Source of the DNA: Psammoneis japonica
Taxonomy: Eukaryota
Assembly (NCBI GenBank): GCA_008632985.1
Contig: QPGO01000006.1
Coordinates: 124,001 to 188,000, forward strand
Reading direction: 5' to 3'
Length of the DNA stretch: 64,000 bases
In this document: piece after piece, positions 37,478 through 62,699 of the stretch
How positions within the stretch are numbered: the stretch's first letter is position 1
Layout of the letters: every line of letters begins with the position of its first letter
Made by a program: the position numbers and the translations under genes
The notes under the pieces: model-generated
What the model saw: the letters and a program-made list of their open reading frames with translations, nothing else
Told to the model about the DNA's origin: nothing
The model's database searches: none

Positions 37478-38448
37478 ATATATAATATAATACTATGAGA
37501 TTGCAATATTGATGTTCTTGGGAAAACCCTCTAGTACATGGTTGTGCACTTTTGGTCCTATCGTGGTTCATTATTACAGACGGTTGTACTGTGTCTCGGA
37601 TGCATTGTTATAAACTAAACGCGTCTGTGTATTTTTCGTTGCAAGGACGAGTGGCGAGTAGTGGACGCATCATAAACGCCATCTCCAATTGGGCTCGGCG
37701 ACAATGATGCGCAGTAAGAGCTATCCAAGTTAGCTCGGAACGATGAGCACGAGAGCCTCAAATTTCTCGAGGAAGTGCAATCCCGATCGGTTGCATTGCA
37801 TCGCAGACATGTGGTGTTTTCATTGCAAGTGTGTTGGCTGTCTTCTTCCTTCTTGTGACGGATCCTTGTTTGGTGCTCTGTCATGCCAGCCATTTGCCAC
37901 TCATGTTTGTTTGTGCCCTCCTTCTTCTTTGGGCAATCATTGCAATGGGTGGGATGATTGGCAGTTGTCGTTCGCCAGTCCAAAAGCCGGAACATGTCTT
38001 GCTTGTCAAAAAGGGCAAAGAAGAGCTGTTTTGTTGAGCAATGCCAGCCCATCTTGAGCTTGGCATGTTTTCTTGTCTCCAGCAAAACAAGGGACACAGC
38101 CCTTGACAATTTCTTGGGCACAAATGCTCTGCTCATCCAGCCAGTTGAGGAACCCAAGCCTCCACAACATGAGGACATTTGTCTGCATTGAGCTCACAAA
38201 GGTCCAGATGCTTCTCTAATCTTGATTGCCGTGCACATGCTCAGCGCCGCTGGCGCCAGTTTGTTGTGGGCAAGCACCGCTTGCTTTGGGGGGCAAGACC
38301 CACTTGCTTGGTTGGGACCCCCAACAAGCCCAAGCTTTGATGTGATTTGAGCCAAAGTTGCTGATCGCCAGCAGCAGCGGTGTTCAGGCAGGAAGACAAG
38401 AGAGACCCATCCACTTTTTCTTCCATTCAGCAGGTCAAGGTTGGCCAT

Positions 38449-41400
38449 CTGCAACAGGAATGAAGTGAAAATAAAGTGAAGCACAGATGTTCGTTTCATT
38501 TAGACAGAAAATGTTAAAAGCACGATCGTCTAAGATCGATGGGTGCGACATCTGCGCCAAATGACTATCGCGAAACTTTCTACGAACATCAACTCAACGC
38601 GACAACGGCTGAAGACACGTGGATTTCTACGTGGTTGCACCAAATCGCCTCCATTGCAGACAGAATTCTCTTCTCGTTTGAGTGCTCTCACAATTTCTGA
38701 ATTGCTCGTCAGTTCACAGTCCATCATGAAAATCATGAACTTTGTCCTTGCCATCATTGCCGCCATGAGTGCTGGTGCAATCATCAGCCCTCTCTCTGCC
38801 TCGTTTGTTGATGCGGCAAAGCGCTCCGTTAGCGCCTTGTCGATCAAGGCCGCCACGGCGACCGACAGCATCGCCACGTTCAACCAAGAGCTCCCACGCA
38901 AGTTTTTGGACAACAACAGTTGCTCAGATGTCGATGCAACCTCCAGCTGCCACCATGACATCATCAGCAATGCTGCTCCCAGCACTGTTCCCTTCGAAAA
39001 CGCCGCCATCACTTCCAGCTTTTGCGTCTGTTTTGACGACGGCGACAAGTCTCCGAGTCGCGTCCAAGACCTCCTGCACAATGCCACGCCCACGATTGTG
39101 CCAGAAGAAGATGCCAACGAGTGTTGTGTCCATGACTGTTTTGTGCCGGACAACAATGGCGACTCCAACGGCAGCCTCCAGCAACTTTTTCTCAACACTG
39201 CTCCTGATGGCACGATTCAGACCAAGGCAGTCCCGTTCCAAGATGCGTTCACGACATTTTTTGGAGATCCAGTCGGCCTTCTTGTCGGACACACACGACA
39301 GCTTTTTGGGTGTCAAGACGGAAGCGTTTCAGCTTTGGTGGAAACTTGCAGATGCATTTTCGAACGACGTCATCGCGAAAATCCAGACTCAGGCTCGCGT
39401 TCTCAAAACCCCCAGAACAATTGATTGCCAATGCAGTCAATTGCAATTAATTGCAATTGTCAATTAATTGCAGCACGTTCACCTGTTCCTCAATGCATTG
39501 GCTTGAGTTACATTGCGCTTGATTGCCGAATGTTGTGTGTAAAAAATTGCATCTTTGTTGCACCTTTCTCAGCACAAAAAAGACGTGGTTTTCTGCACGG
39601 TCATAACTCCGTGGTGAGGAATTGTCGGTGTGGTTCTGGCACTTTTGCTCAGTTTGTTTGTTGTTGTTGTCGTCGTCGTCGCGAACGGTGTGTCACATCG
39701 CATCCCACTTCCTTCCTCCACAATGGAGCAAGCAGGAGACTTGCCCAAGGGCAAAGAACTTGTGCTCCTTGTCATGGATGTTGAAGAAACGACCGTCACG
39801 CTTCTCGATGAGGATGTAAAAGGACATAAAATCACGTGCCCAAACTGCAAGAACTGCTCGAAATTCATCAAGAAGAAAGATGGGTTTGCCAACCCCTGCA
39901 ACCATTGGCTCTCTTGCGTCAAGGATCAGGCTCCTGTCATTGTTGCTGAGCGCAGAAAACAATTGGCTGAAGCCGAAGCAAAGGAAGCAGAGGCAAAAGA
40001 GGGCAACTCGGCACCAGTGCAACAGAAATTTCAGGCTGTCACTAATTTCCACCGCTCGCTCCATGTGTGGACAGAGAAAATCGTCCTTCTAAATCGTCCA
40101 GTCAGCTGCGTGACGAATGAGGTCGAACAGTCTCATGCAAAGCATCCTGAAGTGTCCAGCACAGAGATGGCACTGGACACCATGTTTCACCTTGCTGAGA
40201 CAGTAGAGGGGAAGATCACTGATGTGATGGAAATGGCACCGGGTTGCCAAGTTGTTTGTGATGGCTGGACCAAGTGTGGTGTCCATTGTGTGGCCCTGTG
40301 TTCTTCTTTCAACAAGAAGCTGCGCATCATTGTAGACAGAACCGAGGAAACAAGAGAGATGCATGAGTTGCGTTCACTGTCGGCATCACCCATGCCGGCC
40401 ATGTCGGAGGATGACAAGGATGACAAGGACCTCGAAGCGGTGTCATTTGATGCAGACCACCACCAGAACCTCATTGAAGAAACATTCGACGTGTGTGACA
40501 AGCATGCCACATGGTTCATCCTTTGTCAAGCCGCCGACAGCGCATCCATCAACATCAAGGTTGCAAATGACATGGGCCATCCTCATGTGTCTTGCAAGAA
40601 TCACAACCTGAAGAACGACCTGATGATGGCACGGAATGAGGAGCTGAAGGATTGCACCACCAAGGTGTGCAATCTATCTTCATCTGTGAGGGCCTCCGCC
40701 AAATGTTCTGCTGCACTCCGAAATGCTGCTGCCAAGCCTGACAAGCACAGCAGCGTCCGTGCAAAGGCCACATCCATCACAAGGAAGTGGACAGGGTTGG
40801 AAGAAGCCCTCGGGTCCCACCTGAAGCTCCACCCTCATCACCACAAACTCATTGAAGAGGACAAGTCGGGCAAGCTGCAGGAACACCAGGAAACTGCAGA
40901 GATGTCCTTCGTTGGGAAATGCAAGACTCACGGCCGGCATCTGAAGCAGATGAAGAAGGTGTCAGCCCACATGCAGAGTAAAAAGAAATCGCTCAGCAAG
41001 TGCCAAGATCTTCTGAACAAGCTGCGTTCGAAGGTGACAAGGAAAGCGCACAAGCCCAAAAGCAGTTGCCACAAGTGCACCCCGGCAGGAACGCGACAAT
41101 TTTTTGCCTTTTCGGAACCCATTCTTGTCCAACCATCTCTCTGAGATCAAATCGAGTGTTGGACATTGGGGGAAGAGAGATGTGGAGATTGCAAAGACTT
41201 GGACGAACCTGCTGTGTGAAGAGGTGTTGCTGTTCTGGAACCCAATTTTGTCTGACTGTCGCTCTGCGATTGAGTGGAAAGCCAAGTGTTGGGGGGCGAG
41301 AGTTTTAGATGCATCGACTCATGTGATGAACGTTCTTCAAGATTCTGTGCCAATTGTGAAACCCCGCGAAGAAACCAAGAATGTTGTTGTTGAGGTTCTG

Positions 41401-42984
41401 GCACCTGCCATTGGAAGTTGGGTCACGACATTGAAACAAATCAGGCTCGCCTTTCGAATCGGTGCTTTTCAAGCACCCGGGAAAATTAGAATGTCAGTTG
41501 GGAGGCAATGCAATCGAGACGTTAGTGAGTCTCGATTGGCATCGAGGGGACACATGTTGCCAGTTAGATTCGAGCAGAAAGCATGGCACAGCATTGCAGT
41601 TGTCGTTTGCTTGTCTGCCACAGAGTGTTTGCCGCTTCGACTGCCAATCTTAACACACATTTTGTCGATGTCACTCTGCCGAGACAAAGTAGAGCCAGCA
41701 GACTGGTGCTTGTGACGGTGTCGTCTTCACAGTCCCTGCATTTTCCAGAGTCGGCACTGATCCAGTCGACGACGCCTGTGTTGCAAATGCAGACTCAGCA
41801 CATCCGCCTGGGCATGTGCATAGACCCACAGCACACATTCCATCATCGTATTCTCGGCACCGCAATCCACAATTCGAAAGAACTGAGAATGGACCACACC
41901 ACTTCTGTGTCTGCTGGATTCATTGCTCCTCCCATTGTCGTTCAACATCACTCCACAATGTCAATTTCCGTCTTCGACTCATGCCATTTGCCATCAATTG
42001 TCATGTTGCGTGTATCGACATCGTCAATTGCAACAATCAAATCGTCCACCCGAATCACACCCAGCAGTGGACTATCGTCCTTGAGCGACATGACTTGGGG
42101 TCCATCGAGTGTGGTGTCGACAACAATTCCCAATCGACCCAGTGGTGCGTGGACATCTTGTTGTGCCTTTCCGGGTGGAATGTCATGTTCGTTTTGAAAG
42201 GACGGTGCCGACAAGGAACCATCGGCTGTGGCAGCACCCAACATGGTGGTTCCACTCGACATGGAACCAGGATCATACGTGGCCGCATCTTGAATGCCGT
42301 CGTCAAGCGAATGGGCACATGTCAAGTCGCCTCCGCCCTTGCTGGGAATGCTGTTTGCCAGATGCGATCCATCGTTCCACGATGAGTCGCCACTGGATTT
42401 GGTTCGTTGTCGATGCGAGTGACTGCTCACTTGACTCTTGGGACTGGCTTGACCATCCTCCACGTAGGATAGATTGGAGGAACGAGCCGAACTTGGTGGT
42501 GCTTGTCGTCGTTGTGGTTGTTTGGACTTTTTCAGTGGAGTCCAAAAGGAACTGTCCAATTTCCTGTTCTTCGAAGCAGCAGCATTCGACAACGAAACCA
42601 TGGATGCATTGACGGCAAGAGACGTGTTGTTGTTGGGACCCATGCTTTTGAAACAGTTTCGTGGTCGAGCAGTCGTCCTTCTGGCATGACGACATCCCAC
42701 GGCAAAGAGGCAACACACAATCGCGGCACCCAAGACAATGGCAATGATCACTCCTGTCGAGAGTCCACTGTTCGAGGAAGAAGTTTTTTGCCATTGTTTT
42801 CGACATTGTTGGTTTCGTCTTGCATCACGGAATTGACGGACGTGACGGTGGAAAAGTGATCATCACCCAATTGCTGTAGCAGCGAAATAAAAGCTGGACT
42901 CTGTACGGCAAAGACATTTCGTAACAGACGACTGTAATCCAAATCCTCCGATGCAGTTGCAAAGCCTTGACGAGGACGAAAGTC
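38449..42984. pseudogene. Hypermutated duplicate (copy 1) of 52968-55835, interrupted by a hAT fragment
   Basis: Colinear with the secreted-protein gene and the 3' half of the PDZ membrane-protein gene; Tyr codons read Cys/His; frameshifts present. Confidence 0.93.
39404..41084 (+). mobile_element. 3'-truncated hAT-like DNA transposon (BED finger plus DDE transposase), hypermutated
   Basis: Inserted between GTTCT and GCAGGAACG of the parent sequence; motifs CPNC...NPCNHWLSC, VCDGWT, ADSASIN, SCKNH (CxxH) and TRKW; CAATTG/CAATTAATTG palindromes at the 5' end; no TSD seen. Confidence 0.8.
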
Positions 42985-45900
42985 GCAAGAAGCGCCTTTT
43001 CGCTTGTTGCGATAAGCAAAAGGCTCATCGCTGCTTGGCAAAGGAGAGAAAAACGTCCGCATTGTGGTGCGCTCTGTCGCGTTGCCCATGCCATCATCTT
43101 GTCATCGACAAAGGTGCGCAGTCCTCATCGTAAAAACAGTTCTCTTCATTTCTGCCACCAGCACAGCTGGCACTTTCTAGCGCCTTCCAATTGGGTCAAT
43201 GCTGCTTGTACATTGTTGATCGAAGTCTCTGCAACGACACTCATCATGTCCTTCTGGATGGCACTGAACGACAGCATCACCTCTTCTTGCACTTCCCAAG
43301 TCCTGCGAGTTTTGTTCGACTTTTTAATGTTCACACAGAGAGTCCGCATGAGTGGCATCATTTGTGCCCGTCTTTCCCGTCACCCCAAACGTTGCTCCTT
43401 TTTGTCAGTGTCACGGTCGACAAAGCCAGAAGGCTTGCTCCACTGTGTCGTTTTTGTCTCACGATTGTAATGGCAGGTCTGACCAGTGTGCAGCCTTCCA
43501 CAGAGACCGACTCTTTTTTGCTTCGTCAATTTCTGCTCCTGACCAACAGTTTCTTCATCGGAGGGACAATCATTTTCTGTCTCTGGATTAGAATGAGTGG
43601 ACAACATTGTGTTGTCTGGGCTGGCTTTCAATTGCTCAGAGACAGGCTGCATGGCCTGGGAAGTCCCCACAGTGGCGTCGCCAACTCCGCCACTTCAAAA
43701 ATCGGAGATCCGCCAATTGCAAAGATGTCTCCAGGTTCGGGAGGATAGATCAAGTGCTTCTTGACATCCTCGGGGCTCAATGGACCCAACTCCCTCCTAA
43801 ATCACCGAAGGAAGAGAAAAAGAGGCGAGCATTGAGAAAGGAAGCAGCGAACATTGGAACTCAAAAACACTGTTTGGAGCAACTGACTTGCCGTCCAGCC
43901 AAGCGGAGGCTGATTGAGAAACACGCGGTGTCTGGAATGTCTGGGATCCGAGTCCCACACATCATCCAGAATCTTCATGTACGCCAAACCACTCTCTGCC
44001 TCGCCCGAACACTCGAATGATTTACAGCATGAGAGCAATTCCTGTGCCAACCACTGGCAATCCAATCTTTGACACCTTTTCTCAAAAGAAAATGCCCTGG
44101 TCCGTTGGCCCAAGCCGCAAGCCACCCAATGCAGACATGTGCACCACACCACCAGGTCACGAACGATCTAGAAGCTTTGTGATTGGCCCCCCTTTGGCGT
44201 CGGTCCAGTGCGAAACACAAATCACCCCTGCGTCATTGGGGCGGGCAATGGGCGAAAGCACCCCACCAATGTCTCACCGCCCAGTTCACCGCGGAGACCA
44301 ACGAATTGGCCAGCGTCTTGACCAGAGTTTTGCAACGCGCCATTGGGATTGAAGCGCACCTCATGCGCATCAATGCCGTGTTTGGCATCCGTGTTGAGTG
44401 CTTTGAGGAGCATCCATGAAAGCCATCAATGGGAACACCGTTGACAGCAACGGAAGTAGAGTTGACGTCTTGACGTGGGAGACACAAAAAAGATGGACAC
44501 CGCCAGTCGCACTTCAGCGACAGGTCGAGGCTGGGTGCCGTTGATTCGAAGGAATTCACTTCACATCCACAGGAAAAGTGAAAATCGTCACCCACGCAAC
44601 ATGTGGCAGGATCATCTTGATCTGGATTCCAAGCGCAGGTCAACCACCAAAAGGCAAACACATGGCAGCCGTGGGTGCTTCGTTTCAGAGATTTTGTTGG
44701 CTCGATTGAACTTTGTCGTCAAATGTCAAAGTCCGTAGCGGTCCGTACACCACTGTCTTGGGAGAGAAGTTGGTGGTGCTGTGCAGGTCTAGCGGGATGG
44801 CTGTGGCGCCCGTCATGGGATAGATTTTGCTAAGAATGCATTCGCGCTCAGCGCAAGCTTGGTCAAATCATCCGACAGGACAGCAATCGCAGCGCTGGTC
44901 ACTTCTGTGAACCGTTTGCACAGACATGCAATGGCTAAAAGCCTCCATTTCTATCATCTCCCGCTCGCATCCAAGACAACATCCACAGAGTGGCAATGGT
45001 CTTGACCGCAATGTGCTCATTCGGTGGCAATTCAATCACAGTGGCACAGGCTCGTGATGATCTTTATCCTGCAGTGGCATGGCAAAAGTTGTGACAGGCC
45101 CGGGTTGCTGTGTCAGTTCTGTTTGTTTCCACGGAGGCTGGGGCAAAGAGACTCGGTCTTGCGAGTAAAACGGGTGTAACCTGTCTTGTTGCTTGGCACG
45201 CGTGCTTTCAACTGTCGTTCCAGATCAAGGTGCAAAGCCTCCGTCGGCGTTGGCTGAATTGTCTTTTCCACAGCTCGGGCTTTGAGATGCAGGCGCAAGC
45301 CTCTACATTCACCCACTGCACAAATCCACATGCCCTCAGTTTCTTCTACAAATTCAATGTCAGACTTGTGCGATGCAGAGGTCCGTCACAAAATCGACAC
45401 GTCGTCGATCACGAAAGATGCGTTGGTGCATGGGGGCAGCAACAGCCAGCGAAAGATGCGTTGGTGCATGGCAATGGCCACAAGGCTGCACCCTCTAATT
45501 GCAGCGGAGACAAGGCCCATCACAGTGGCAAACAGAAATTCGAAGTTAAAGTGAGCATCAACAAAACAGTGGAAGACAAACGCAGGAGAGCCCTTGCGCA
45601 CCTTGTTCTTGGCAAACTTTGTCAGATGCAGCAACGCCAGCCAGAAACGCTGACTCAAACGAAGGAAGCGCACGAGAAGGAATCTCATCGAACATGACAT
45701 TGCAAAGCTCGGGGGGTGCTAGAGTCGCCCTCCTCAGATTTGCTGCAGAGAGATGCTGCAGCATCTTTGGGAGACACTGTGGCATCTTTCGATGGTTCCT
45801 TGTCATCACTGTCCAGAATCTCAACAATGTTGCTTTGCTTGTGATCTGCAGAGGCCGCTGGTTTCTTTGCTTCTTTTACAGTGTCGTCACTTGTGTTGTC

Positions 45901-46199
45901 TTTATGGTCGATGCGTTTGCAGCCAAAAGACTCTGAGGCAACGCCGTGGGCACAGACCACCGGCACGTCGAAAATGTGTCAATCGCTTCTCCCACCCCCT
46001 CGACATCATCCTCCTTTTTCTCTGGAACAATGGGGGCGTTGCAGCAACGGGCGGTGGTGGCATCATCACGTGTCGTTGACGCCATGTTGTTTTGTGCAAC
46101 AGTTTCAAGTTTCAACAGTTGACTGGCATCTGGCATCAACAAAGTTGGACGACGGGCGGAGTGCGGATGGACGGAAAGCACCGGCAGGGTCATGAGGTT

Positions 46200-48385
46200 A
46201 GCACGACAGTCTAAGGTCGACAGGTGCACCAACTGCACCGAAATGACTTTCGCGAAACTTTCTCTGAACTTCAATGCAACGGAGAAACGGCCCACGCCAC
46301 GCAGATTTCTGCGTGTCTTGCACCACGGCGCCTCCATTGCAGACAGAATCTCTTCTCGTTCGAGTGCTCTCACAATTTCTGAATTGCTCGTCAGTTCACA
46401 GTCCATCATGAAAATCATGAACTTTGTCCTTGCCATCATTGCCGCCATGAGGGCTGGTGCCATCATCAGTCCTCTCTCTGCCTCGTTTGTGGGGTGCGGC
46501 AAAGCGCTCCGTTGGCGCCTTGTCGATCAAGGCTGCCACGGCAACCGACAGCATCGCCACGTTCAACCAAGAGCTCCTGCACAAGTTTTTGGACAACAAC
46601 AGTTGCTCAGACATCGACACTGCCCCCAGCCACTGCCATGACATCATCAGCAACGCTGCTCCCAGCACTGTTCCCGAAAACGCCATCATCACTTCCAGCT
46701 TCTGCACTCATTTTGATGACGGCAACAAGTCTCCGAGTCACGTCCAAGACCTCCTGCGCAACACCACGCCCACGATTGTACCAGAAGAAGATGCCAACGA
46801 GCATTGTGTCTATGACTGTTTTGTGCCGGACAACAATGGCGACTCCAATGGCAGCCTCCAGCAACTTTTTCTCAACACTGCTCCCGACGGCACGATTCAG
46901 ACCAAGGCAGTCCCGTTCCAAGATACGTTCACGACATTTTTGGAGATCCAGTCGGCCTTCTTGTCGGACACGTACGACAGCTTTTTGGATGTCAAGACGG
47001 AAGCGTTTCAGCTTTGGTGGAAACTTGTAGACGCATTCTCGAACGACGTCATCGCGCAAATCCAGACTCAGGCTCGCGTTCTGCAGGAACGCGATAATTT
47101 TTTGCCTTTTCGGAACCCATTCTTGTCCAACCATCTCTCCGAGGTCAAATCGAGTGTTGGACATTGGGGGAAGAGAGTTGTGGAGATTGCAAAGACTCGG
47201 ACGAACCTGCCACATGAAGAGGTGTCGCTGTTCTGGAACCCAATTTTGTCTGACTGTCGCTCTACGATTGAGTGGAAAGCCAAATGTTGGGGGGCGAGAG
47301 TTTTAGATACATCGACTCATGTGATGAACGTTCTTCAAGATTCTGTGCCGTTTCTGAAACCCCGCGAAGAAACCAAGAATGTTGTTGTTGAGGTTCTGGC
47401 ACCTGCCATTGGAAGTTGGGTCACGACATTGAAACAAATCAGGCTCGCTTTTCGAATCGGTGCTATTTGAGTACCCGGGAAAATTAGAGTGTCAGTTGGG
47501 AGGCAATGCAATCGAGACATTAGTGAGTCTCGATTAGCATCGAGGGGACATATGTTGTTAGTTAGATTCGAGCAGAAAGTATAGTGCAAAATTACAATTA
47601 TCGTTTGCTTGTCTACCATAGAGTGTTTGCCGCTTCGACCACCAATCCTAACACACATTTTGTCTATATCGCTCTACCGAGACAGAGTAGAGCTAGCAGA
47701 CTGGTGCTGGTAACGGTATCGTCTTTCATAGTCCCTGCATTCCCCAGAGTCGGCACTATTCCAGTCGACGTCGCCTGCATTGCAAACGCAGACTCAGCAC
47801 ATCCGCCAAGTTATGTGCATAGACCCACAGCACACATTCCATCATCGTATTCTCGGCACCGCAATCCACAATTCCAAAGAATCCAGAATGGACCACACCA
47901 CTTTTATTTCTACTGGATAGATTCGTTGCTTTTCCATTGTCATTCAACATCACTCCACAATGTCAATTTACGTCTTCGACTCATGCCATTCGCCATTAAT
48001 TGTCCAATCGAATTGGCCGTCATGTTGCGTGTATCAACGTCGTCAATGGCAACAATTAAATGATCTACCCGAATTACACCCACCAGTGGACTATCGTCCT
48101 TGAGCGACATGACTTGGGGTCCATCGAGTGTGGTATCCACGACGATTCCCAATCGACCCGGTGGTGCATAGACATCTCGTTGTGCCTTGCCGGGTGGAAT
48201 GTCGTGTTCGTCTTGAAAGGACGGTGCCGACAAGGAACCACCGGCTATAGTAGCACCCAACACGGTGGTTCCACTCGATGTGGACCCAGGATCGTATGTG
48301 GCCGCATCTTGAACACCGTCGTCGAGCGAATAGGCATACGTCAAATCCCCTCCGCCCTTGCTGCTGTTTGCCAAATACGATCCAT
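46200..48385. pseudogene. Partially hypermutated duplicate (copy 2) of ~53030-55220
   Basis: Colinear with the secreted-protein gene and the PDZ C-terminus; TA lost on the left, largely retained on the right. Confidence 0.93.
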
Positions 48386-48386
48386 T

Positions 48387-49310
48387 TGGGTGGTAGATAC
48401 GTGATATAATGTGAGATTGCAACCATTGATGTTCTTTGGGAAACTGGTGCTTGGTTGTGCAAGAAAACCGCATGGGTGACGGCGTGCTTTTGGTCCTATC
48501 GTGGTTCATTGTTGCAGATGGTTATACTCGGCGATCAGCTCCACAGATGGAAACAAACTCGTTGCCAGGGAATGTGAGTAAGTTGGGATCACGTCGATGA
48601 AATGCATCATGAACGCCACCTCCATTGGGCTCGGTGACAATGCTAGACCTACACAGTAACTTGCGAGCTCCAAGTCCGGAACGACAAGCACGAGAACTCG
48701 GTGGTCTCTCCATCGGATGACGAGATGATGATTCGAATCGTGCATGCAAATCCGAATCGTGCTTGTGCGACTTGGCATGCGGTAAAATGCCACCACATCT
48801 CTGTGAAGGCACACAACAGTCACCATGCTCTTCAAACGTAATCGCGGCCGTCGCTCGGCCTCTTTCTTGTGCCTCAACAGCAAGAAAATTTCAGGCCTCC
48901 CCCAACAATCCATCGACAAGCAACACCAGTGCACGTTGCCTTGATCATCGTTCTGAGGCTTCCTCTGCCTCAACGGCAAGAATGTCACAGGGTGCCCATC
49001 ACGCCAGTGACTCAAGCAAGCAAGACAAACCCTCTGATCATCCTCTTCCTGTCTCCTTGTTTATTCTGACTGCAGCAATCCCGATCGGTTGCATTGCATC
49101 GCAGACATGTGGCGTTTTCTTTGCAAGTGTGCTGGCTGTCTTCTTCTTTCTTGCAGTGCTTCCGGCTGAGTCGGCGATCTGTTTTCCCCGCCAAGTGTTG
49201 ATTTCCACCCTCCTTCTTTTGGCACTCATTGAGATGGGTGGGATGATTGGCAGTTGTTGTTTGCCAGTTGCCAAGCCGGAGTGTGTCTTGCTTGATGAAA
49301 AGGGCAAAGA
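48387..49310 (+). repeat. Diverged duplicate of ~37467-38020 (end and 3' flank of the PRCC-like gene), with insertions
   Basis: Shares TGGGTGGTAGATA...GAGATTGCAA, TTTTGGTCCTATCGTGGTTCATT and GCAATCCCGATCGGTTGCATTGCATCGCAGACATGTGG. Confidence 0.8.
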
Positions 49311-49829
49311 ACAGCTCCTTCCGCAAGAAAAGGGAACCACTGGCTTTGCCAAGGGACTCATGATGGGGACAGCAGCATCGATTTTGTCTTTTCTTCTGCT
49401 GCTTTTGCCAAAGGAGACACACAGAGGAATTCTTGTCATCTGCGATCCCCTGCACCGGATGCCCCCACATGGTGAGCTCATTGTTTCCAGCTGACGGCAG
49501 TGCCTGCGACTCGATGCGCTGCCAAATTTAGAGCAGCGAATGAAAATCCACAGTTGTGGTTGGAGCATGTAAAATGACAGACTCGAATGGCTTGTTGTGA
49601 TTGTGATTCTTTTGGGTGGGCAGTGCCACAACAGAGAGAATCACACCAGAACCAAAACGAAGCACCTTGAGCAGCACAGCACCGCTGTTTCTCCACTTCT
49701 CCGAGAAAAACCATCTGTTGCTGCAGATGACTTTTTGGATTCAGTCTGTGCTTTCTCTTCCTTTCCACTGTCCTTGGGGCTTTTCTTTTGTGCTTTGGTG
49801 CCTTTTCAAGAAGATGAGCTGGAGAAAGA

Positions 49830-52100
49830 AATGCCTTTTTGCTTGTTGCCAGAAGAAGCAAAAGGTTTGTCACTGCTTGGCAAAGAAGAGAGAAAGATCC
49901 GCATTGTGGTGAGCTCTTGTGCATTGCCCAAGCCATCATCTTGTCATCAACAGAGGGGCATTGCAGTCCTCATCATAAAATTGTTGATCAAAGCATCTGC
50001 AGTGACACTCATCATGTCCTTCTGGACCACACTGAAAGACAACATGTCCTCTGCTTGTTCTTCCCGAGTCCTGTGAGTTTTGTTTGACCTTTTGGTGTTC
50101 AGGCAGAGAATCCGCATGGGTGGCATGATGTGTGTCCATCTTTCTTGTCACCCCAAAGTCTTTCTGGGTGCAAACAGCTGAGCGACTTTCTTCTTTGTCA
50201 CCACATTGCTCCTTTTCAGTGCCATGGTCGTCAAAGCCAGATCCAATGTGTTGCTCTTCTTTCATGATCACATGGCAGGCCTGACCAGTGTGCAGCCTTC
50301 CACAGATGCCATTTCGTTTTGTCAACTTCTGCTCCTGACAAACTGTTTCTTCATCAGAGGACTGCCATTTTTGGTCTCTGGATTAGAAGGAACAGATGCC
50401 ACATCATCTGGGTTGGCTTCACCAGCAGCATCTCCAACTCCACTGCTTCAAAAATCAGAGGTCCATGCAAATGCCTCTTGACATCCTTGGGCTCAACAAA
50501 CCCATCTTCCACTCCCAAATCACCAAAAGAACCAAAGGAAGAGAAAAAGAGGCGAGCAATGAGAATCCAAGCAGCAAAAATTGGAGCTAAAAAAAGTTTG
50601 GAGTGACCGACTCACCATCCAGCCAAGCAGATCCAGCCAAGCAGAGGCTGCTTGAGAAAAATGCAGCATCTGACATGTTCGGGGTCCAAGTCTTGCACAT
50701 CATCCAGAATCTTCATGTGGGCCAAACCAGTCTCTGTCTCAGCTGATTAGATCAGGGCAAGCCCCATCTTCAATGTGCCCAGGGTGGCTTTGTCCACACA
50801 CTCCCCGGGTGCTTGAATGATCATTTGTGGCACAAAATGTCAATCACCACAATGTTGCTGGGACGGGTGATGGGCAAAAAGCACCCCGCCAATTTTGCAA
50901 CATGCCATTGAGATTGAAACACACCTCATGCATGTTGATGCTGTGCTTGGCACCCATGTTGAGCACTTCGGGGAGCATCAATGGAAGCCATCACGGAAAC
51001 AGAGTTGACATCTTGACATTGGAGATGCAAAAAGATGGACACTGCCAGTCATTCTTGAGCAACAGGTTGACACTGGGTGCCATCGATTTGCCAGAAATTA
51101 CCTCATTTCTGCAGGAAAAGAAGTGCAAATCATCATCCATGTGTTGAGGCATGTTGAGTGACATGGGCCAAATGCCAATGATCTCCATGGATCGCGCATC
51201 AATGAGCTTGCTCCACCCAGTGTGCTGCAAGCAGCAGGATCATCTTGATCTAGACTCCAAGTGCAGGTTGACAACCAAAGGCAAACACGTGGCAGCCATG
51301 GGTGCTTTGTTTCTGAGATTTGGGTGCAGGAAAGATGCAAAGGAGCCTGCATGATTTTTTGCACATTGTGGCTGTTCTTGTCAATGAAAGCATTGTGCAT
51401 GCACCCATGCAAGCAGGAGCGCAGATGTCCAATTGCACTTCCTCTCATTTGGCACCACCAAGGCACATCAGCATGAACAAGGCACACCTCTTGAAGAAGG
51501 TTGCAACAGCATTGTGATCTTGCTCAGAGACATTGAATGACTCAATGATGCTGCCATGAACTTTGTTGTCAAATGTCAAGTCTGCAGCATTGCACACTTC
51601 ACAATCTTGGGAAAGATGACATTCCCTTGTTGGCAGTGCTGGCAGAGGTGGTTGGAGGTGCTCCACCTCTGTCGAAGGCACAGAAAGCACATTGGGCACA
51701 GTGCCTGTTGGTTGCGGCTCACCTTTGGCAACACTTTCCCAGAAAGACCAGCTTTGACAACCACTCACATGGACATGAGCCCATGCTGCAACTTGAAGCC
51801 TGCATTTCTGTCATCCCCTGCTTGTGTCCATGATGCCAGCTGCAGTGGCAACAGTCCTGACCACAACATGCTTTCAGCTGCAACTCCACAAGTGTGGCAC
51901 AGGCTTGTGATGTTCTTGATCCTGCGGTGGTGTGGCAAAAAAAATTAAGATGGGCCCGGATTGCTGCATCAGCTTTGTTGGTTTCCATGGAGTCTGGGGC
52001 AAAGAGACTTGGTCTTCAGCAAAACAGGCACAACCTGTCTTGTTGCTTGGCATGTTCCACTGTTGTTCTAGAGCAAGGTGCAAAGCCTCCATTGTTGGTG
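49830..52100 (+). repeat. Diverged duplicate of ~42990-45250
   Basis: Shared colinear blocks: TCCGCATTGTGGTG, ACACTCATCATGTCCTTCTGGA, CTGACCAGTGTGCAGCCTTCCACAGA, ACATCATCCAGAATCTTCATGT, GCAGGATCATCTTGATCT, CTGGGGCAAAGAGACT. Confidence 0.8.
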
Positions 52101-52515
52101 GTGTTGGCTGAGCCATCTTTTCTTGGAACTTGGTGCAGTGCCTGCCAGCAGAAGCTGGGTCACCATCATTTGAAACAAATTGGGCTCACCTTTTGAGCAG
52201 GTGTTTTTAAGTGCCTGGAAAAATCAGATGTCAAGTGGGAGACAGCCCAGTCAAATGTCAGTGAGCCTCACAAAATTGTCAGCCAGCTTCAAGCGGAAAG
52301 CACAGCGCAGCAACACAACAGAGATTTGCAGCCACTTTCCATGATGACCCCTCTTGCAGAAAAAGAGCACATGTTGGGTTGCTGGCACATGATGAGGAGA
52401 ATGGACAAATTCAGCACCAGAGTCAAAAAGCATGCTTTGGAAAGAGTCAAGCACAGTGTCTTTCCTCACATGCAAGCACCAAGCCAAGGAAAGACCTGAC
52501 AATGCAACAAACAGG

Positions 52516-52728
52516 GAAGCTGTGCAACTCTTCCATGGGAAGCAATGAGTTCTTGCAAAAAATCAACTCACAAGCTCAAACACACAAAAGTGCATGATTG
52601 TGCACCAAGTCAATCATCAGCTGGCACAGAGTGCCATGAACTTGGAAGTTCAATGACCCCAACAAGCCAGACTTGTCAGGAAGAAAAGCTGGCACACCCC
52701 CATCCAAAACGAAATTGTGGGTGGCAGT
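52516..52728 (+). pseudogene. Decayed fragment of the PRCC-like C-terminus
   Basis: KLCNSSMGSNE versus KMYNSSMGSDE; CCAAAACGAAATTGTGGGTGGCAG versus CCAAAACGAAAATATGGGTGGTAG (stop TAG read as CAG). Confidence 0.8.
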
Positions 52729-53240
52729 GATTGATTTGCTCTTGGAGTGAGAAGGGGTTTGTGCAGTAAAAGAATGGCTCAATGCAGAGGAGATTCACAA
52801 GGTTTCCCCGCACAGTCATTGAGATGAGTGGAGTTCGTGAGGTGCATGTCACAGCTTCAAACTCAGTCTCTGCAACGCCGCAACAGAGAGAATCACACTG
52901 GAGTCAAAACAAAGTGCTGTGGGGAGCCCCCTGGCTTCTTGAATTGACGCCATGTTGTTTTATTTGACTGCAACAGGAATGAAGTGAAAAGAAAGTGAAG
53001 CACAAATTTTATTTAGACAGAAAATATTTAAAAGTACGATCGGCTAAGATCGATAGGGTCGCCAACTGCGCCGAAATAACTATCGCGAAACTTTCTTGGA
53101 ACATCAACTCAACGCGATAACGGCTGACGCCACGTAGATTTCTACGAGGTTTGTACCACGGCGCCTCCATTGCAGACAGAATCTCTTCTCGTTCGAGTGC
53201 TCTCACAATTTCTGAATTGCTCGTCAGTTCACAGTCCATC

Positions 53241-54305
53241 ATGAAAATCATGAACTTTGTCCTTACCATCATTGCTGCCATGAGCACTGGTGCCATCATC
53301 AGCCCTCTCTCTGCCTCGTTTATTGATACGACAAAGCGCAGCGTTAGCGCCTTGTCGATCAAGGCCGCCACGGCGACCGAAAGTATCGCCACGTTCAACC
53401 AAGAGCTCCTACGCAAGTTTTTGGACAACAACAGTTACTCAGATATCGATACCACCCCCAGCTACTACCATGACATCATCAGCAACGCTGCTCCCAGCGC
53501 AGTTCCCTTCGAAAACGCCATCATCACTTCCAGCTTCTGCGTTCATTTTGACGACGGCGACAAGTCTCCGAGTCGCGTCCAAGACCTCCTACGCAATACC
53601 ACGCCCACGATTGTACCAGAAGACGATGCTAACGAGTATTGTGTCTATGACTATTTCGTACCGGACAACAATGGCGACTCCAACGGCAGCCTCCAGCAAC
53701 TTTTTCTCAACACTACTCCCGATAGCACGATTCAGACCAAGGGAGTCCCGTTCCAAGATACGTTCACGATATTTTTGGAGATCCAGTCGGCCTTCTTGTC
53801 GGACACGTACGACAGCTTTTTGGATATCGAGACGGAAGCGTTTCAGCGTTGGTGGAAACTTGTAGACGTATTTTCGAACGACGTCATCGCGCAAATCCAG
53901 ACTCAGGCTCGCGTTCTGCAGGAACGCGATAATTTTTTGCCTTTTCGGAACCCATTCTTGTCCAACCATCTCTCTGAGATCAAATCGAGTGTTGGACATT
54001 GGGGGAAGAGAGTTGTGGAGATTGCAAAGACTCGGACGAACCTGCTATATGAAGAGGTGTCGATATTCTGGAACCCAATTTTGTCTGACTGTCGCTCTAC
54101 GATTGAGTGGAAAGCCAAATATTGGGGTGCGAGAGTTTTAGATACATCGACTCATGTGATGAACGTTCTTCAAGATTCTGTGCCGTTTCTGAAACCCCGC
54201 GAAGAAACCAAGAATGCTGTTGTTGAGGTTCTGGAACCTGCCATTGGAAGTTGGGTCACGACATTGAAACAAATCAGGCTCGCCTTTCGAATCGGTGCTT
54301 TTTAA
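53241..54305 (+). CDS. Putative secreted hypothetical protein (~354 aa)
   Basis: Uninterrupted ORF from MKIMNFVLTIIAAMSTGA (signal-peptide-like); least mutated of three copies; no recognisable domain. Confidence 0.55.
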   Translation: MKIMNFVLTIIAAMSTGAIISPLSASFIDTTKRSVSALSIKAATATESIATFNQELLRKFLDNNSYSDIDTTPSYYHDIISNAAPSAVPFENAIITSSFCVHFDDGDKSPSRVQDLLRNTTPTIVPEDDANEYCVYDYFVPDNNGDSNGSLQQLFLNTTPDSTIQTKGVPFQDTFTIFLEIQSAFLSDTYDSFLDIETEAFQRWWKLVDVFSNDVIAQIQTQARVLQERDNFLPFRNPFLSNHLSEIKSSVGHWGKRVVEIAKTRTNLLYEEVSIFWNPILSDCRSTIEWKAKYWGARVLDTSTHVMNVLQDSVPFLKPREETKNAVVEVLEPAIGSWVTTLKQIRLAFRIGAF

Positions 54306-54774
54306 GTACCCGGGAAAATTAGAATGTCAGTTGGGAGGCAATGCAATCGAGACGTTAGTGAGTCTCGATTAGCATCGAGGGGATATATGTTATTAGTTAG
54401 ATTCGAGCAGAAAGTATAGTACAACATTACAATTATCGTTTGCTTATCTGCCATAGAGTGTTTGCCGCTTCGACTACCAATCCTAGCACACATTTTGTCG
54501 CTATCGCTCTCTCGAGACAGAGTAGAGCTAGCAGACTGGTGCTGGTAACGGTATCGTCTTCATAGTCCCTGCATTCCCCAGAGTCGGCTCTGTTCCAGTC
54601 GACGTCGCCTGGCTGTATTGCAAACGCAGACTCAGCACATCCGCCAAGGTATGTGCATAGACCCACAGCACACATTCCATCATCGTATTCTCGGCACCGC
54701 AATCCACAATTCCAAAGAACCGAGAATGGACCACACCACTTCTATGTCTACTGGATTCGTTGCTCCTCCTATTA

Positions 54775-56837
54775 TCATTCAACATCACTCCACAATGTCA
54801 ATTTACGTCTTCGACTGATACTATTCGCCATCAATTGTCCAATCGAATTGGCCGTCATGTTGCGTGTATCGACATCGTCAATCGCAACAATCAAATCATC
54901 TACCCGAATCACACCCACCAGTGGACTGTCGTCCTTGAGCGACATGACTTGGGGTCCATCCAGCGTGGTATCGACGACAATTCCCAATCGACCCGGTGGT
55001 GCATAGACATCTCGTTGTGCCTTGCCGGGTGGAATGTCGTGTTCGTCTTGAAAGGATGGTGCCGATAAGGAGCCGCCGGCGATAGTAGTACCCAACATGG
55101 TGGTTCCACTCGATATGGAACCAGGATCATATGTGGCCGCATCTTGAATACCGTCGTCGAGCGAATAGGCATACGTCAAGTCGCCTCCGCCCTTGCTGCT
55201 GTTTGCCAGATACGATCCATCGTTCCACGACGAGTCGCCACTGGATTTGGTTCGCTGTCGATACGAATAACTGCTGACTTGACTCTTGGGACTGGATTGA
55301 CCATCCTCCACGTAAGATAGATTGGAGGATCGAGCCGAACTGGGTGGTGCTTGTCGTCGTTGTGGTTGTTTGGATTTTTTCAGTGGAGTCCAAAAGGAAC
55401 TATCCAATTTCCTATTCCTGGAAGCAGCAGCAGCATTGGACGACGAACCCATGGATGTATTGACAGCAAGAGATGTGTTGTTGTTGGGACCCGTGCTTTT
55501 GAAATAGTTTCGTGGTCGAGATGTCGTTCTGGCATAACGATATCCCACGGCAAAGAGGCAACACACAACCACGGAACCCAAGACAATGGCAATAATCACT
55601 CCCGTTGAGAGTCCACTGTTTGAGGAAGAAGAATTTTCGCCATTGTTTTCGATATTGTTGGTTTCGTCTTGAATCACCACGGAATTGACGGAATGACGGT
55701 GGAAAAGTAATCATTGCCCGATTGCTGTAATAGCGAAATAAAGGCTGGACTCTGCACGGTAAAGACATTTCGTAATAGACGACTGTAATCCAGATCCTCC
55801 GATGCAGTTGCAAAGCCTTGTCGTGGACGAAAGTCACCCGTCGCATCCAATTGCACAGTCAATTGCTGCAAACCGGCACTACCACTGGCATCCACGTCGG
55901 TTGGCGTGGACACTTGTTGGTTGTACACTCGGATCACCTCCACACTCGAAACGGGTTGTTCCAACATGCTGAGCGCATTGGATAAAAAGGCTTGCGAAAT
56001 GAATCGAAATATTTCCAATGTATTGTCATTCATTGTGCCCGAAACGTACAGGAGATTGACCCCGACTGTGCCATTGACTGGAATGGCGGTGCCGCCCGTG
56101 GAGGATGGTATAGCAGTGGATGGTGGTATTGTAGAAGGGATCATTGTGGGTGACGTTGTGGTGGTGGTTGTCGTCGTTGGACTGCCGGTTGGCTCGGTGG
56201 TAACTATCGTACTGGTGGGCTGCTCGGAGGATAATGCCGTGATGGATGGTGCACTGGAAGGCCATGAAGTAGTAGTGATGCTGGGTGACAAGGTCAATTG
56301 GGCAGTCGGAGCAAGGCTACTTTCCATCATGGTTGGAAGAAACGTGGGAGTCGTAGTGGGAAGCAATGTGGTCAAAGAAGGACTTGCTGATGGACTCGTT
56401 GTTGGACTCGTGGTAGTGGCTGCTACGGTTGGAGAGCTGGTCGGTGTACTGGATGGTTGACTTGTTTGAATGCTGGAAGGTTGACTTGTTGGAACAGAGG
56501 TGGATGAAGCAACAGTTGAGGTGGGACTCGCTGTCGTCGAGGCACTTGGGCTCGGTGAAGGACTCACGGTAGTTGTAGTAGTATCAGCAGCGGTGGGTTC
56601 GGCGGTAGGTTCCATAGTTGTCGTAGGTGTGGATTCGAACGTTGGAAGAGGCGATGGTTCCAATGTAGCTGGAGTAATAACGGCAGAGGGAGCCTGTGAT
56701 ACTTGGGCCCAAACTGATGAATGGAACAATAATTGCATGATTGCAAACGCTCGCCATGGAGTCTTAATGTTGTTGTAGTGACGATTTCTTGTAGTAGCTC
56801 GTCGCTTATTGATGGGTACTTTGTGTTGCAGCGTCAT
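54775..56837 (-). CDS. Type I membrane protein: signal peptide, PT/S-rich stalk, TM helix and C-terminal PDZ-like domain (1-bp frameshift near 55695)
   Basis: PTxSP repeats; TM segment GVIIAIVLGSVVVCCLFAVG; DVYAPPGRLGIVVDTTLDGPQV...LIVAIDDVDTR. Copy 1 reads through the junction in one frame (FSTVTSVNSVMQDETNN), so the break is a single indel. Confidence 0.85.
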
Positions 56838-57585: not shown

Positions 57586-60101
57586 TCATGCAGAATGCCG
57601 GTACTCGGGTACAGCATCCTCTTGTTGTTGCTCGACCGCCTTGAGAGATCGTTCATAAAAGTCCAAGTACTGAAACATTTCTTCACCCGACAAGACTTGA
57701 TTTCGACTCGGTGCTGCCGGTTTACTATTCTTGCGCTCCGCCATGCGATCGCGAAACTTTTGCTTGACGCTGCTAATCTTTTCTTGATAGAGCGATTCAG
57801 CCAACTCTTCATCTTGCTGCGTAGTACGATTTTGCGAGGAATCGACAAACGAAGACGGACTGTGATGACCGCTATTGGCGGCAATGGCCTTGGCCAAAAT
57901 GACAGAATGCTCGCGTTCCGGAAAGACATGGGATGGTTCCGATTGCAATTCCAAGAGTCGTTGCTGTGTGTCATGAAACAAGATAACGAGTATAGTTAGA
58001 AACAGCCGTCATTCTCAATACATACATCAACCATCAATAATTCACAAAAAATTACTACACAGCAACTCACTTGCAACTCTTCCAATTCCCGTTCCTTTTC
58101 TTGCAAACTCTGTTGCGCTTGTTGCTTGGCCAGCATGGCTTCACGCGCCACCAATTCCGCCTTGATTTCCGCCCGTTGTGCGCGTCGTGCCAAGATTTGT
58201 TTTTCATAATCCTCAAAATCGGTCGAAATGTTGGAACTCTCCAGAGTAATCACGGACGACGGTGCTGCTTCCACGAGAGAATCTTCATTCTCCAACCGTA
58301 CCAACAAGGTTTCGTACTTGGCCACCAATTGTTCAATCCGATCCCGTACCAAATGAAAGGCACGTTCGGCGACAACCAATTGTTTCGACAAGGCCTTGAC
58401 TTGTTCCATGGAAGTCAAGTAGGTCATTTCCGCTTGTGTCATGATTCCGTGACTATCCGACATTATTTCTGGAAACTCTTCTTCTTGCTTCATGATTTCT
58501 TCCGCTTCAATTTGAAGAGCCGTCGCGTCAAAGAGTTCTCCCCGGAGTTGTACACACCGTTCATTGGTTAGTTTCAATAAAATGGATTGACAATCACCAA
58601 TGGTAAACATTTCAAATCCACGCATACACCGTGGTCCGAGTGACGGACACTTGTATTGCATAAAGTCCACATCGTCCATCCATTCCACCAATTCCAAATA
58701 AGCATGTTGTCCATCGTATCGTTCGACACAATAGTCACAGTTGGGACGTGTCAAACACGATGCCGTCACTACATCGCGTGGACTCGCACCATCTCTCCAT
58801 GCCTTGGCCACCAAGACGGCATCACGAATGCGTAGCGATGCTTGAACATGTGGTGTCAGCACCAAATCATCACACACCACCGTCCCACCACGTCTCTCCA
58901 ATGAGCGTTCCAAATCGGCATGCAATATACGACTTCGCATTTCCGACAAGGCAAAGGCGCGTTTGACATCGTGATGCGTGTTTTCCGTTACTTCCGAAAA
59001 ATATCGAAAGGCACGTACCAATTTCTTGGTGGCTTGTGGAGATACTTGATAGACACTCCAATCGACATCCTCCTCATCTTCTTCCGAAAAAGAGGATGAT
59101 TCACTACTCTCGGTTCTTTGTTGTTGCAATAGAGTAGAGGGAGACTCAAATGCGGGTAATTTGATAAAACCGTATTGATCCACTTCGGAATTGGTCAAGG
59201 TTTCATCGTATTCACGAGAGGTATGACGAGCATCAAAATCCACTTGACGGGTTTGAATCGAAACCAAACCCGAAGGCAACACGACAACATTCAATTGTTC
59301 TTCTTCGTCTTCCTCAAACGTGGTGTTTTCCTTTTCATCTTCGTATTCTTCATGATGTTCCTCCAAGACTCGTTGGGGTGGTACAAAGTCTGAATCCACG
59401 ATACCATCAAAGACATCCGATACAGTAGGCTTGGTATAGGTCGATGTGGCACGGGACGAGGAACAAAAACTATCCGATTCTACTTGATCCATCAAATTGG
59501 GAACTTGAAATTTTCCATAGAGAGGTGTGGAAAAGAGAGAATCATTCTTTTCGAGAGCTTCACGTGTAATGGTTGTTGTTGTTGGAGTTGGAAAAGATGT
59601 TTCCGAACCACCATAATGCGCCGGAGTTGGTTCCCAATTGTGACGCTTATCAAACAAATCCGTCATGGAAATTGAACTGCCATTGGCAATACTAGAGGAT
59701 GATGGTGGCGGTAGTGGTGCAGTACTAGTAGTAGTACTGCGCTGTTGTTGTTTTTGTCTTGTGTTGGTTCGTGCCGCTTGAGCTACAATTTCAGCCAGAG
59801 CAAAGTCTGCGGCATTTGCATTCGAGTAGACTTGTTCTGCTTCTTCTTGTTGTTGTTCTTGTTCATCTCGTACTAGATTGAGTTTGGAAGGAATCGGATG
59901 TTGTGAAATCCAGGATTGTACGTGTTGTGACGACGCCCGTTCCAAGTCATGTTCGAGATTGACACGAAAGTGACAAACACCACTGCCGCCTATCGAAGAC
60001 GCCGTGTCTTCAAAACTGGAACTCGCCGTTTGTACAATACGTCCACGTGTATCCATCGTTCCGGGCCATGCGACAAAAGACGACGAATGATCGGAAGACA
60101 C
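57586..60101 (-). CDS. Hypothetical coiled-coil protein (~802 aa), two exons with intron 57964-58070
   Basis: 677-codon exon ends ...ELEELQ before GTGAGT; acceptor CAG at 57964 joins QRLLELQ... in frame. Confidence 0.85.
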
Positions 60102-61072
60102 TGGAGACGATGGAATGTTGTTGTTGTGTTTTTGTTTTGTTGTTGCGACGAAGTATTACTCAACATGCTGGCCAGACGAGCAACGCGGACGAACTTTTTG
60201 TTGTTGTATTCTTCAGCAAAGGACGTCCTGTGGAAGTCTTCTTTTTGTTGCCTTGACGACGAAAGAAGGAACTTGTTGTTGTTGTTGTTGTAGTTGTACT
60301 ACCAACCATGCTGCTTTTACGAGTCTCCATGGTAAATAGAAAGAGAGAGGAGTGAAATGAGGTAGGTACAACACAAACAACACAGAGCGGGTGTGCGTGA
60401 TGAAATGACGCGGGTGGATGGATTTTGCAGTGCGTTGCGCCACGCTAAAAATCTAGGAGACATTGATATACATCCTCATCAACATATAAAACATTCCGAC
60501 ATTGGATGGCACTTTCTTAAAACCCGAAAATAACAATTCACAAATCGGACCTACCAAATGGCTTGACGGGACTTAAAGTACAAGACTGAGAGCATTCAAT
60601 TTTATTCAAATTCAAAGAACTATGAATCCTCATGAATAGTCGCGGCGGCGTCGCTACACACGACTTGTTCGATTTTTCATTGGCAGTACGAATGGTACGT
60701 GTCGTATCAAATTGCGTAGAAACTACACACAGCTGGGCGAGCATGCCTTTCCATTTTTTTTTTTCGAAAAAAATGACGAAAAAAAGTGAGCACAGCAACC
60801 GTGCCGTATGCTGGCTGTGCGCTGTGAATAATCGAGTAGTGAACGTCTGCATCTGTGTTTGTTGTGCGTTCTTCACATCACCAACATCAACAAGAACAGA
60901 ACGGGCGGACGCTTACGTATACATGCCAACACCATAAAATGCAATATGGGTATGTACGCCCACATAATGTGTTCGAGAGCTTGTGCTGACTGCACACTAC
61001 TGTTGTTTTAACGGGGGTCTCACACAATTATTTCTTCTCTCATTTGTTTCTTACGATTTAGGAACAGCGACC

Positions 61073-62605: not shown

Positions 62606-62699
62606 TTATGTCAACATATTTGGACGATTAACAGTAGTAAGCTTGATCAGTATAAACATGATTGAAACTATTCTTTTGTTTGTAAAACAAAATGGCCTT

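Follow-up and report, generated by a model that had tools for sequence, protein, structure and literature searches.

Hypermutation aimed at the dinucleotide TpA has a single precedent for any organism in the literature that we searched, a preprint on the chlorarachniophyte Bigelowiella natans, and none in diatoms. According to the text of that preprint (Mettrop et al., bioRxiv 10.64898/2026.01.13.699255), mutation-accumulation lines acquired 231 mutations in two regions, one from an integrated giant virus and one from a virophage, and 230 of these were A>G or T>C; these changes all fell at TpA, at a rate about 1000 times background, and 124 TpA-poor clusters were found genome-wide. Its authors propose defense against, or silencing of, unwanted DNA by a DNA-editing adenosine deaminase, with an ADAT2-like candidate (bioRxiv 10.64898/2026.01.13.699255). 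Here we analyze 64,000 nucleotides of contig QPGO01000006.1 from Psammoneis japonica (positions 124,001 to 188,000; the whole stretch is called the window below), in which three tandem copies of one locus (copies 1, 2 and 3) and a set of TpA-poor tracts record what is very probably a DNA-level process that converts TpA to TpG or CpA in sharply bounded chromosomal domains. The first-pass annotation of this DNA had regarded such a process as undescribed, a view that the 2026 report of TpA>TpG/CpA hypermutation in B. natans has made outdated.

The signature in the window matches that of B. natans and is probably its first sighting outside that species, in a second lineage and in a far more advanced state; the second lineage is probable because the one conserved gene of the window, which encodes a glycosyltransferase of family 90 (GT90), is closest to diatom proteins. 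As far as the text of the preprint goes, both cases consist almost only of A>G and T>C changes, at TpA, regional and far above background, with clusters that are poor in TpA and rich in CpA and TpG. The host here is diatom-like and not a chlorarachniophyte, the affected sequences carry no viral hallmark and include tandem paralogs, and the changes are known from standing sequence and not as de novo events. Decay has also gone further: two-state segmentation on TA divided the window into six hypermutated tracts (33,238 bases, or 52% of 64 kb), in which the ratio of observed to expected TA (hereafter the TA ratio) is 0.02-0.14, and five normal tracts with TA ratios of 0.61-0.71, whereas the preprint text gives 0.45 for the nucleocytoplasmic large DNA virus (NCLDV; giant-virus) region of B. 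natans. Three features seen here, namely co-located decay of CpG, a preference for a 3' pyrimidine and leakage into a young long terminal repeat (LTR), are absent from the preprint text, which, supplements lying outside this comparison, mentions neither CpG nor diatoms nor the bases that flank TpA (bioRxiv 10.64898/2026.01.13.699255).

Fungal repeat-induced point mutation (RIP) resembles what we see in its near-saturating, dinucleotide-specific transitions of unwanted DNA, in its leakage into adjacent sequence and in the skewed dinucleotide tracts that it leaves. However, RIP changes C to T at CpA and makes TpA, whereas here TpA is destroyed; in addition, one member of a tandem trio of similar copies has escaped here, the borders ignore homology, and strand-coordinated runs are missing. 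CpG decay through 5-methylcytosine (5mC) likewise turns a palindromic pyrimidine-purine dinucleotide into TG or CA on either strand in silent DNA, and it is found in the same tracts here, but deamination of 5mC cannot remove TpA. The claim of the first-pass annotation that neither process accounts for the loss of TpA is thus borne out.

The three copies are tandem paralogs with pairwise nucleotide identities of 90-93%, which confirms the earlier reading of them as one locus in three versions (coordinates are given in Table 1). Their identity in purine/pyrimidine space is 94.7-97.4%, and therefore most differences between the copies are transitions, although the copies differ by transversions and indels too. 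An insertion of 1.68 kb (39404-41084) interrupts copy 1 and is likewise TA-poor (TA ratio 0.12; copy 1, 0.14). A recount of one stretch of copy 3 (53241-53917) reproduced the counts of the first-pass annotation exactly: of 27 TA sites, 26 are changed in copy 1 (17 TG, 9 CA; the one surviving TA lies within GTTAGC) and 22 in copy 2 (12 TG, 9 CA and 1 CG, with 5 TA kept), and at 7 of the 27 the two copies carry opposite products. Over the full overlap of copies 1 and 3, the 118 TA sites of copy 3 correspond in copy 1 to 55 TG, 40 CA, 22 TA and one other, that is, to 95 transitions against a single change of any other kind. A three-way block holds 100 dinucleotide positions with TA in at least one copy. 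TA is kept in all three copies at 10 of these; copy 1 alone has TG or CA at 33 (copies 2 and 3 both TA); copies 1 and 2 share an identical TG or CA against TA in copy 3 at 24, and have opposite products (TG versus CA) against TA in copy 3 at 15; TA is found only in copy 2 at 7; loss in copy 2 alone and in copy 3 alone accounts for 1 position each; and 9 show other patterns. Copy 2 is graded along its length (from a tally of its per-site list), with the first 13 of 13 TA sites changed and then 21-38% toward the 3' end. Synonymous and noncoding positions are among the TA losses.

The direction of change can be read from these patterns. Under parsimony, each of the 15 sites with opposite products takes two transitions from a TA ancestor and at least three changes from any other. 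Because these sites are cheapest from TA, because copies 2 and 3 share TA at the 33 sites changed in copy 1 alone, and because the LTR pair of a Copia element agrees (see below), the ancestral state is TA, with A:T>G:C changes on either strand occurring independently in copies 1 and 2, as the first-pass annotation had proposed. It had added the caveat that sites common to copies 1 and 2 might be gains of TA in copy 3. Same and opposite outcomes number 24 and 15, and independent hits predict 19.8 same outcomes of 39 (binomial p = 0.20); the split therefore fits independent hits, and gain of TA in copy 3 need not be assumed.

Substitution spectra, resolved by context with copy 3 taken as the reference, support the specificity for TpA that had been claimed. 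In the 5'-T[A] context, copy 1 has A>G at 75 of 175 A sites (43%) and a single transversion beside those 75 transitions, whereas A>G affects 22 of the 905 A sites outside this context (Fisher p = 2e-46); copy 2 has A>G at 42 of 172 A sites in this context (Fisher p = 1e-20). Background levels are 1.5-3.0% for A>G in the A[A], C[A] and G[A] contexts (1.8-3.0% in copy 1) and 2.9-4.9% for C>T. After correction for saturation the excess of A>G at TpA is about 40-fold per A, which is a lower bound. TG and CA outcomes are interleaved along the copies, and a runs test on their order found no strand-coordinated runs in copy 1 (53 runs, 47.3 +/- 4.7 expected) or in copy 2 (19 runs, 20.8 +/- 3.1 expected).

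The bases flanking TpA also influence the outcome. The edited share in copy 1 falls from T[A]C (0.56) through T[A]T (0.43) and T[A]G (0.31) to T[A]A (0.24), and the order in copy 2 is identical. By tetramer class (R, purine; Y, pyrimidine), TA loss in copy 1 is 38/41 for RTAY, 27/29 for YTAY, 24/32 for RTAR and 5/14 for YTAR. Throughout the window, ATAT occurs 0 times in the hypermutated tracts versus 124 times in normal DNA, and the survival ratios (tracts/normal) range from 0 for ATAT, 0.028 for ATAC/GTAT and 0.061 for GTAC to 0.32-0.41 for TTAA, CTAA/TTAG and CTAG, of which CTAG is highest (0.41). These figures indicate that 5'-TAY-3' is favored over 5'-TAR-3', and simple arithmetic on the survival ratios suggests that each strand contributes on its own and that the two contributions add up.

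That the process is regionally targeted, another claim of the first-pass annotation, is evident from the sharp bounds of the six tracts against normal DNA. The TA ratio of the window as a whole is 0.36, but a separate profile in 500-bp windows (n = 128) is bimodal, with 63 of 128 windows at or below 0.25 and only 2 between 0.25 and 0.35. In a partition based on this profile (32,000 bases in each class), TA density is 5.56 versus 42.8 per kb, and TG/CA is about 1.6 over the tract set. The tract borders are sharper than 500 bp, and two of the normal tracts, with TA ratios of 0.61-0.63, are 9.7 and 12 kb long. Copy 1 lies inside a tract, copy 2 lies across a tract border, and copy 3 begins where a tract stops.

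Duplication as the trigger or target, which the first-pass annotation had put forward, fares less well. Copy 3 is spared at 90-93% identity to its paralogs within 15 kb, the 3' part of copy 2 is lightly hit, and for four of the six tracts the window contains no partner. A RIP-like, repeat-induced trigger is not supported, because the tract borders (37744, 47461 and 53003) do not follow the homology borders (38370, 46117-46200 and 52891). The duplicates reveal the process and do not obviously cause it. Two further duplicated segments are less informative: an upstream segment (37534-38032 versus 48472-49321) is, at 61% identity, too diverged for counts of TA fates, and in an old paralog pair (42931-45269 versus 49767-52123) 38 of the 139 adjacent double differences are CA/TG, more than of any other kind, which is ambiguous in that an ancestral CG gives the same pattern. 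Two tandem repeats were also noted, one in a normal tract (26503-26851; 89-bp unit, 3.9 copies, 92% matches) and one within a hypermutated tract (17111-17454; 171-bp unit, 2 copies, 82% matches). A single N stands at 32361, and the rest of the window is complete.

Loss of TA goes together with loss of CpG. Across the 500-bp windows the observed/expected ratios of the two dinucleotides are correlated (Spearman 0.74, p = 2e-23), and 39 of the 40 windows with a CpG ratio below 0.6 are TA-low. Of 158 CG positions in the copies, 19 carry a CG>TG/CA change private to copy 1, 13 one private to copy 2 and 2 one private to copy 3. Because copy 1 has lost about 86% of its TA dinucleotides as against private changes at 19 of 158 CG positions, loss of TA is faster than decay of CpG. 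Decay of CpG is the expected footprint of cytosine methylation, and diatom transposons are CpG-methylated. Given the CpG>TpG/CpA decay that is co-located with them, the tracts look like silenced, methylated chromatin.

A nearly intact Ty1/Copia retrotransposon provides a clock for the process. It has a gag zinc knuckle, integrase and RVT_2, 304-bp LTRs that are 98.7% identical, and an interior TA ratio near 0.66, and this young element inserted into a tract that was already TA-free. The two LTRs differ at 4 of 304 positions, all of them TA in the 5' LTR and, in order, TG, CA, CA and TG in the 3' LTR; the four differences lie within 43 bp, in the last 65 bp of the 3' LTR, beside the TA-free hypermutated flank. 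Four of the 7 TA sites in these 65 bp are hit, as compared with 0 of 7 just upstream, and the three unchanged TA at the edge are all YTAR (TTAA, TTAG and TTAG). The LTRs of one element are identical at insertion, and their differences, as a clock independent of the three copies, agree with TA as the ancestral state.

The relatives of this element offer a view of other genomes. The best matches to its proteins are metagenome proteins at 52-59% identity; a metagenome scan with a single Copia protein as the query gave no match, and a scan with a Copia alignment gave 79 loci, of which only 3 are close relatives. The closest environmental relative of the reverse transcriptase, on a metagenome contig (L003:1-1213; 61% amino acid identity over residues 215-413), bears a matching footprint: it has a TA ratio of 0.27, one TA in its first 400 nucleotides and a TG/CA of 1.48, and three of four tyrosines conserved in the family are His or Cys there, as TAY>CAY/TGY predicts, although the numbers are small. 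A second contig (L002:1-1615; a Copia relative at 46% amino acid identity) has a CpG ratio of 0.12 and a TG/CA of 1.66 at a normal TA ratio of 0.56; it shows decay of CpG without loss of TpA, and the two processes are therefore separable in other organisms.

Table 1. Positions of the features discussed, numbered from the first base of the window (TA and CpG are observed/expected ratios)
Feature	Position	Strand	TA	CpG	Remarks
Copy 1	38449-39403 + 41085-42984				Near-saturated; 95/118 of the TA sites of copy 3 are TG or CA
Copy 2	about 46130/46211-48386				Partly hit, graded
Copy 3	52968-55835		0.61	1.15	Near-ancestral
ORF of copy 3	53121-54305, ATG at 53241	+			Orphan; N-terminus signal-peptide-like, judged by eye and not with a predictor
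ORF of copy 3	54775-55710	-			Convergent; hydrophobic membrane-span-like stretch, Ser-rich part, weak PDZ-like domain
GT90 ORF	60968-62605	+			Only conserved host-type gene in the window; normal tract
Hypermutated tract 1	8-3336		0.05	0.54	Right border imprecise: first 158 bp of the LTR have no TA
Hypermutated tract 2	8926-14152		0.03	0.16	Complex sequence; pyrimidine-purine steps almost all TG or CA
Hypermutated tract 3	16442-25752		0.09	0.59	
Hypermutated tract 4	37744-47461		0.14	0.78	Contains copy 1, its insertion, the old tail 42931-45269 and the 5' half of copy 2
Hypermutated tract 5	48662-53003		0.06	0.30	Ends at the start of copy 3
Hypermutated tract 6	62688-63998		0.02	0.22	Begins about 80 bp past the stop of the GT90 open reading frame (ORF)
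Ty1/Copia retrotransposon	3181-8951	+			LTRs 3181-3484 and 8648-8951; CGCGTC target-site duplication on both sides
3' LTR edge	8887-8930				Holds all four LTR differences

The few credible genes of the window all lie in normal tracts. The GT90 ORF has 331 relatives, and every named one among the best 120 is from a diatom (Cylindrotheca, Nitzschia, Aulacoseira, Mayamaea, Pseudo-nitzschia, Amphora and Entomoneis), at 33-41% identity; a search of protein sources that included MMETSP, EukProt and JGI gave no match above 49%, so that the window has no counterpart in the proteomes searched. The Ty1/Copia element marks the DNA as eukaryotic, and the GT90 relatives make a diatom, or something close to one, its most likely source. 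For the plus-strand ORF of copy 3 a word-indexed protein search returned no homolog, and none was found among 1.84 billion representative proteins; the PDZ-like match of the minus-strand ORF (E = 4e-4) is under the curated cut-off. No RNA data set is listed as carrying copy 3, and a Protein Atlas search with a 719-amino-acid ORF (57996-60155) was uninformative (best score 0.77). Pfam scans covered 71 further ORFs of the window of at least 130 amino acids, together with 105 tract ORFs from a set of 115 that are 85-129 amino acids long, and they yielded no credible match in the tracts, with a few sub-threshold hits at chance level.

Read together, the sequences show A:T>G:C transitions that strike either strand of TpA independently within the domains, and the three paralogs are snapshots of one process: copy 3 outside a domain and intact, copy 2 across a border and graded, and copy 1 inside and near saturation. 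The effect leaks a short distance into newly inserted DNA, as in the 65 bp of the young Copia LTR, and the same domains undergo a slower CpG>TpG/CpA decay. Targeting would be by a silent chromatin state and not by homology. As to the chemistry, the option that we favor, at a little short of an even chance, is a TadA/ADAT-like enzyme that acts on DNA and deaminates adenine to hypoxanthine, which is read as G; its support here is the sequence context, in that it fits the T[A]C/T preference. TadA and ADAT tRNA deaminases, like the adenine base editors made from TadA in the laboratory, convert A to inosine, which is read as G; their natural substrate is tRNA with U 5' of the edited A, and the TadA motif is UAC, which resembles the order T[A]C > T[A]T > T[A]G > T[A]A found here. 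The hits fall on both strands of the duplex without strand runs, a pattern that one would not expect from a processive enzyme of single-stranded DNA. A mutagenic modification of thymine in TpA, which we consider unlikely, fits the symmetric, single-hit, domain-wide pattern; dinoflagellates have 5-hydroxymethyluracil at TpA, and base J occurs in TTA repeats. A>G on one strand and T>C on the other are inseparable from sequence alone.

Four other accounts of the data can be weighed against a domain-bound process that acts on DNA. It might be that TpA>TpG/CpA is simply the neutral bias of the whole genome, such that old unconstrained DNA has reached equilibrium and the normal tracts are young, through recent insertion or conversion, or under selection. 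The Copia element with its normal TA is demonstrably young (4 differences in the 304-bp LTR), copy 3 could be a recent copy of a large family (679 contigs of sequencing run X1 match the 18-kb stretch at 90% likeness or more), and the normal tracts carry the few credible genes. Yet copies 1 and 3 have had equal time since their ancestor, and TA has been lost at 95 of 118 sites in copy 1 versus at most about 8 of 100 positions in copy 3; nor can selection maintain normal tracts of 9.7 and 12 kb with borders below 500 bp, and the contrast between the last 65 bp of the 3' LTR and the sites just upstream finds no place in such a bias, which we consider improbable. An inverse history, in which RIP-like C>T changes (CpA>TpA and TpG>TpA) made the TA sites of copy 3 and copy 1 is the unmutated original, gains from the fact that one branch is unrootable with three copies and from the 24 sites at which copies 1 and 2 agree on TG or CA against TA in copy 3. 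It would, however, cost at least three changes at each of the 15 opposite sites; the composition of copy 3 equals that of the gene-bearing tracts, and it is copy 1 (0.14) and the tracts (0.02-0.09) that are deviant; copy 3 has no C>T excess outside these sites; and the LTR differences adjoin the TA-poor flank and not the surroundings of the 5' LTR. This history is highly improbable. Hyper-editing of RNA followed by retro-copying, so that copies 1 and 2 are reverse-transcribed transcripts edited by an ADAR-type enzyme, is scarcely credible: A>G with a 5' U or T does resemble the ADAR preference given in the B. natans preprint text (bioRxiv 10.64898/2026.01.13.699255), but a copy of one RNA would show one strand only, whereas both strands are hit and interleaved here, without the strand-coordinated A>G clusters of such editing (the four LTR hits read TG, CA, CA, TG within 43 bp), and whole tracts are affected, including intergenic DNA and the LTR edge. 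The preferred 3' neighbor, moreover, is a pyrimidine and not the G of ADAR.

The remaining account makes the signature an artifact of read-out, in which long-read base-calling systematically turned modified TpA (and 5mC CpG) in heterochromatin into TG or CA and no polishing corrected it. Early nanopore assemblies did have systematic consensus errors at methylated motifs, both depleted dinucleotides are palindromic, like many methylation sites, and the platform of the source runs is not recorded. Against this, five listed word-based contigs from run X1 (621-1441 nucleotides; word depth 29-38, a sum over contigs that does not measure copy number) match 48224-53056, a stretch that includes tract 5, with 0 other letters. 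This agreement excludes assembler error but not every base-calling artifact. The 679 contigs show that many diverged relatives of the 18-kb stretch, or of its duplicated unit, exist in the sample, and the listed differences from these contigs include CA/TG double differences at five places together with many CG-TG/CA changes. The transversions and indels among the copies, and their purine/pyrimidine identity, likewise speak against miscalling, and in B. natans, according to the preprint text, Illumina data gave this signature too (bioRxiv 10.64898/2026.01.13.699255). We consider an artifact very improbable.

Several points weigh against a DNA-level process confined to chromosomal domains, or against parts of that interpretation. 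The polarization draws on three copies and one LTR pair, and searches of the protein collections found no outgroup ortholog. Run X1 may be the source data of the assembly itself, so that the agreement of its contigs is not fully independent, and the sequencing platform is unrecorded. The placement among diatoms by protein similarity comes from a single gene, with about 40% identity. No protein domain is recognizable in the hypermutated tracts, and the Copia element, the sole recognizable transposon, is young and hit only at its edge. The strand rule expected from the TAY preference is only partly followed, with 31 TG to 11 CA at YTAY, as predicted, and 14 TG to 12 CA at its mirror RTAR; pooled hits on the TAY strand stand at 43 versus 25 (binomial p = 0.04), and the difference between YTAY and RTAR has a Fisher p of 0.12.

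Erasure of TpA has a practical consequence for annotation. TAA and TAG fall to 3.8 and 3.2 per kb in the tracts, from 18.4 and 17.5 in normal DNA, and ORFs of at least 100 amino acids, counted in all frames, number 130 in the tracts versus 72 in normal DNA. Spurious long ORFs accumulate in the tracts because TA erasure removes TAA and TAG, and their number roughly doubles, which is a trap for gene prediction. The accumulation is seen, for example, at 39618-41144, and one of these ORFs, 508 amino acids long, has no Pfam match.

A broader interpretation, which we put forward tentatively and regard as somewhat doubtful, is that erasure of TpA reflects a system conserved in Rhizaria and stramenopiles that edits or marks TpA in silent, CpG-methylated chromatin, acting on any silenced DNA, host gene duplicates as well as viruses, and spreading outward from the cores of domains into neighboring sequence. 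Such a system would use either a natural adenine deaminase of duplex DNA or a symmetric modification of TpA that is mutagenic in the way that 5mC is at CpG. For the mechanism, the window adds the constraints of sharp domains, coincidence with CpG decay, a strand-additive TAY preference, absence of strand runs, graded spreading, and leakage into an LTR that can be dated. Work on base editing would have an interest in a naturally occurring enzyme that recognizes a defined motif and edits A in duplex DNA. If the placement of the lineage holds, then the process would be an old or recurrent mechanism of genome defense or silencing in major marine primary producers.

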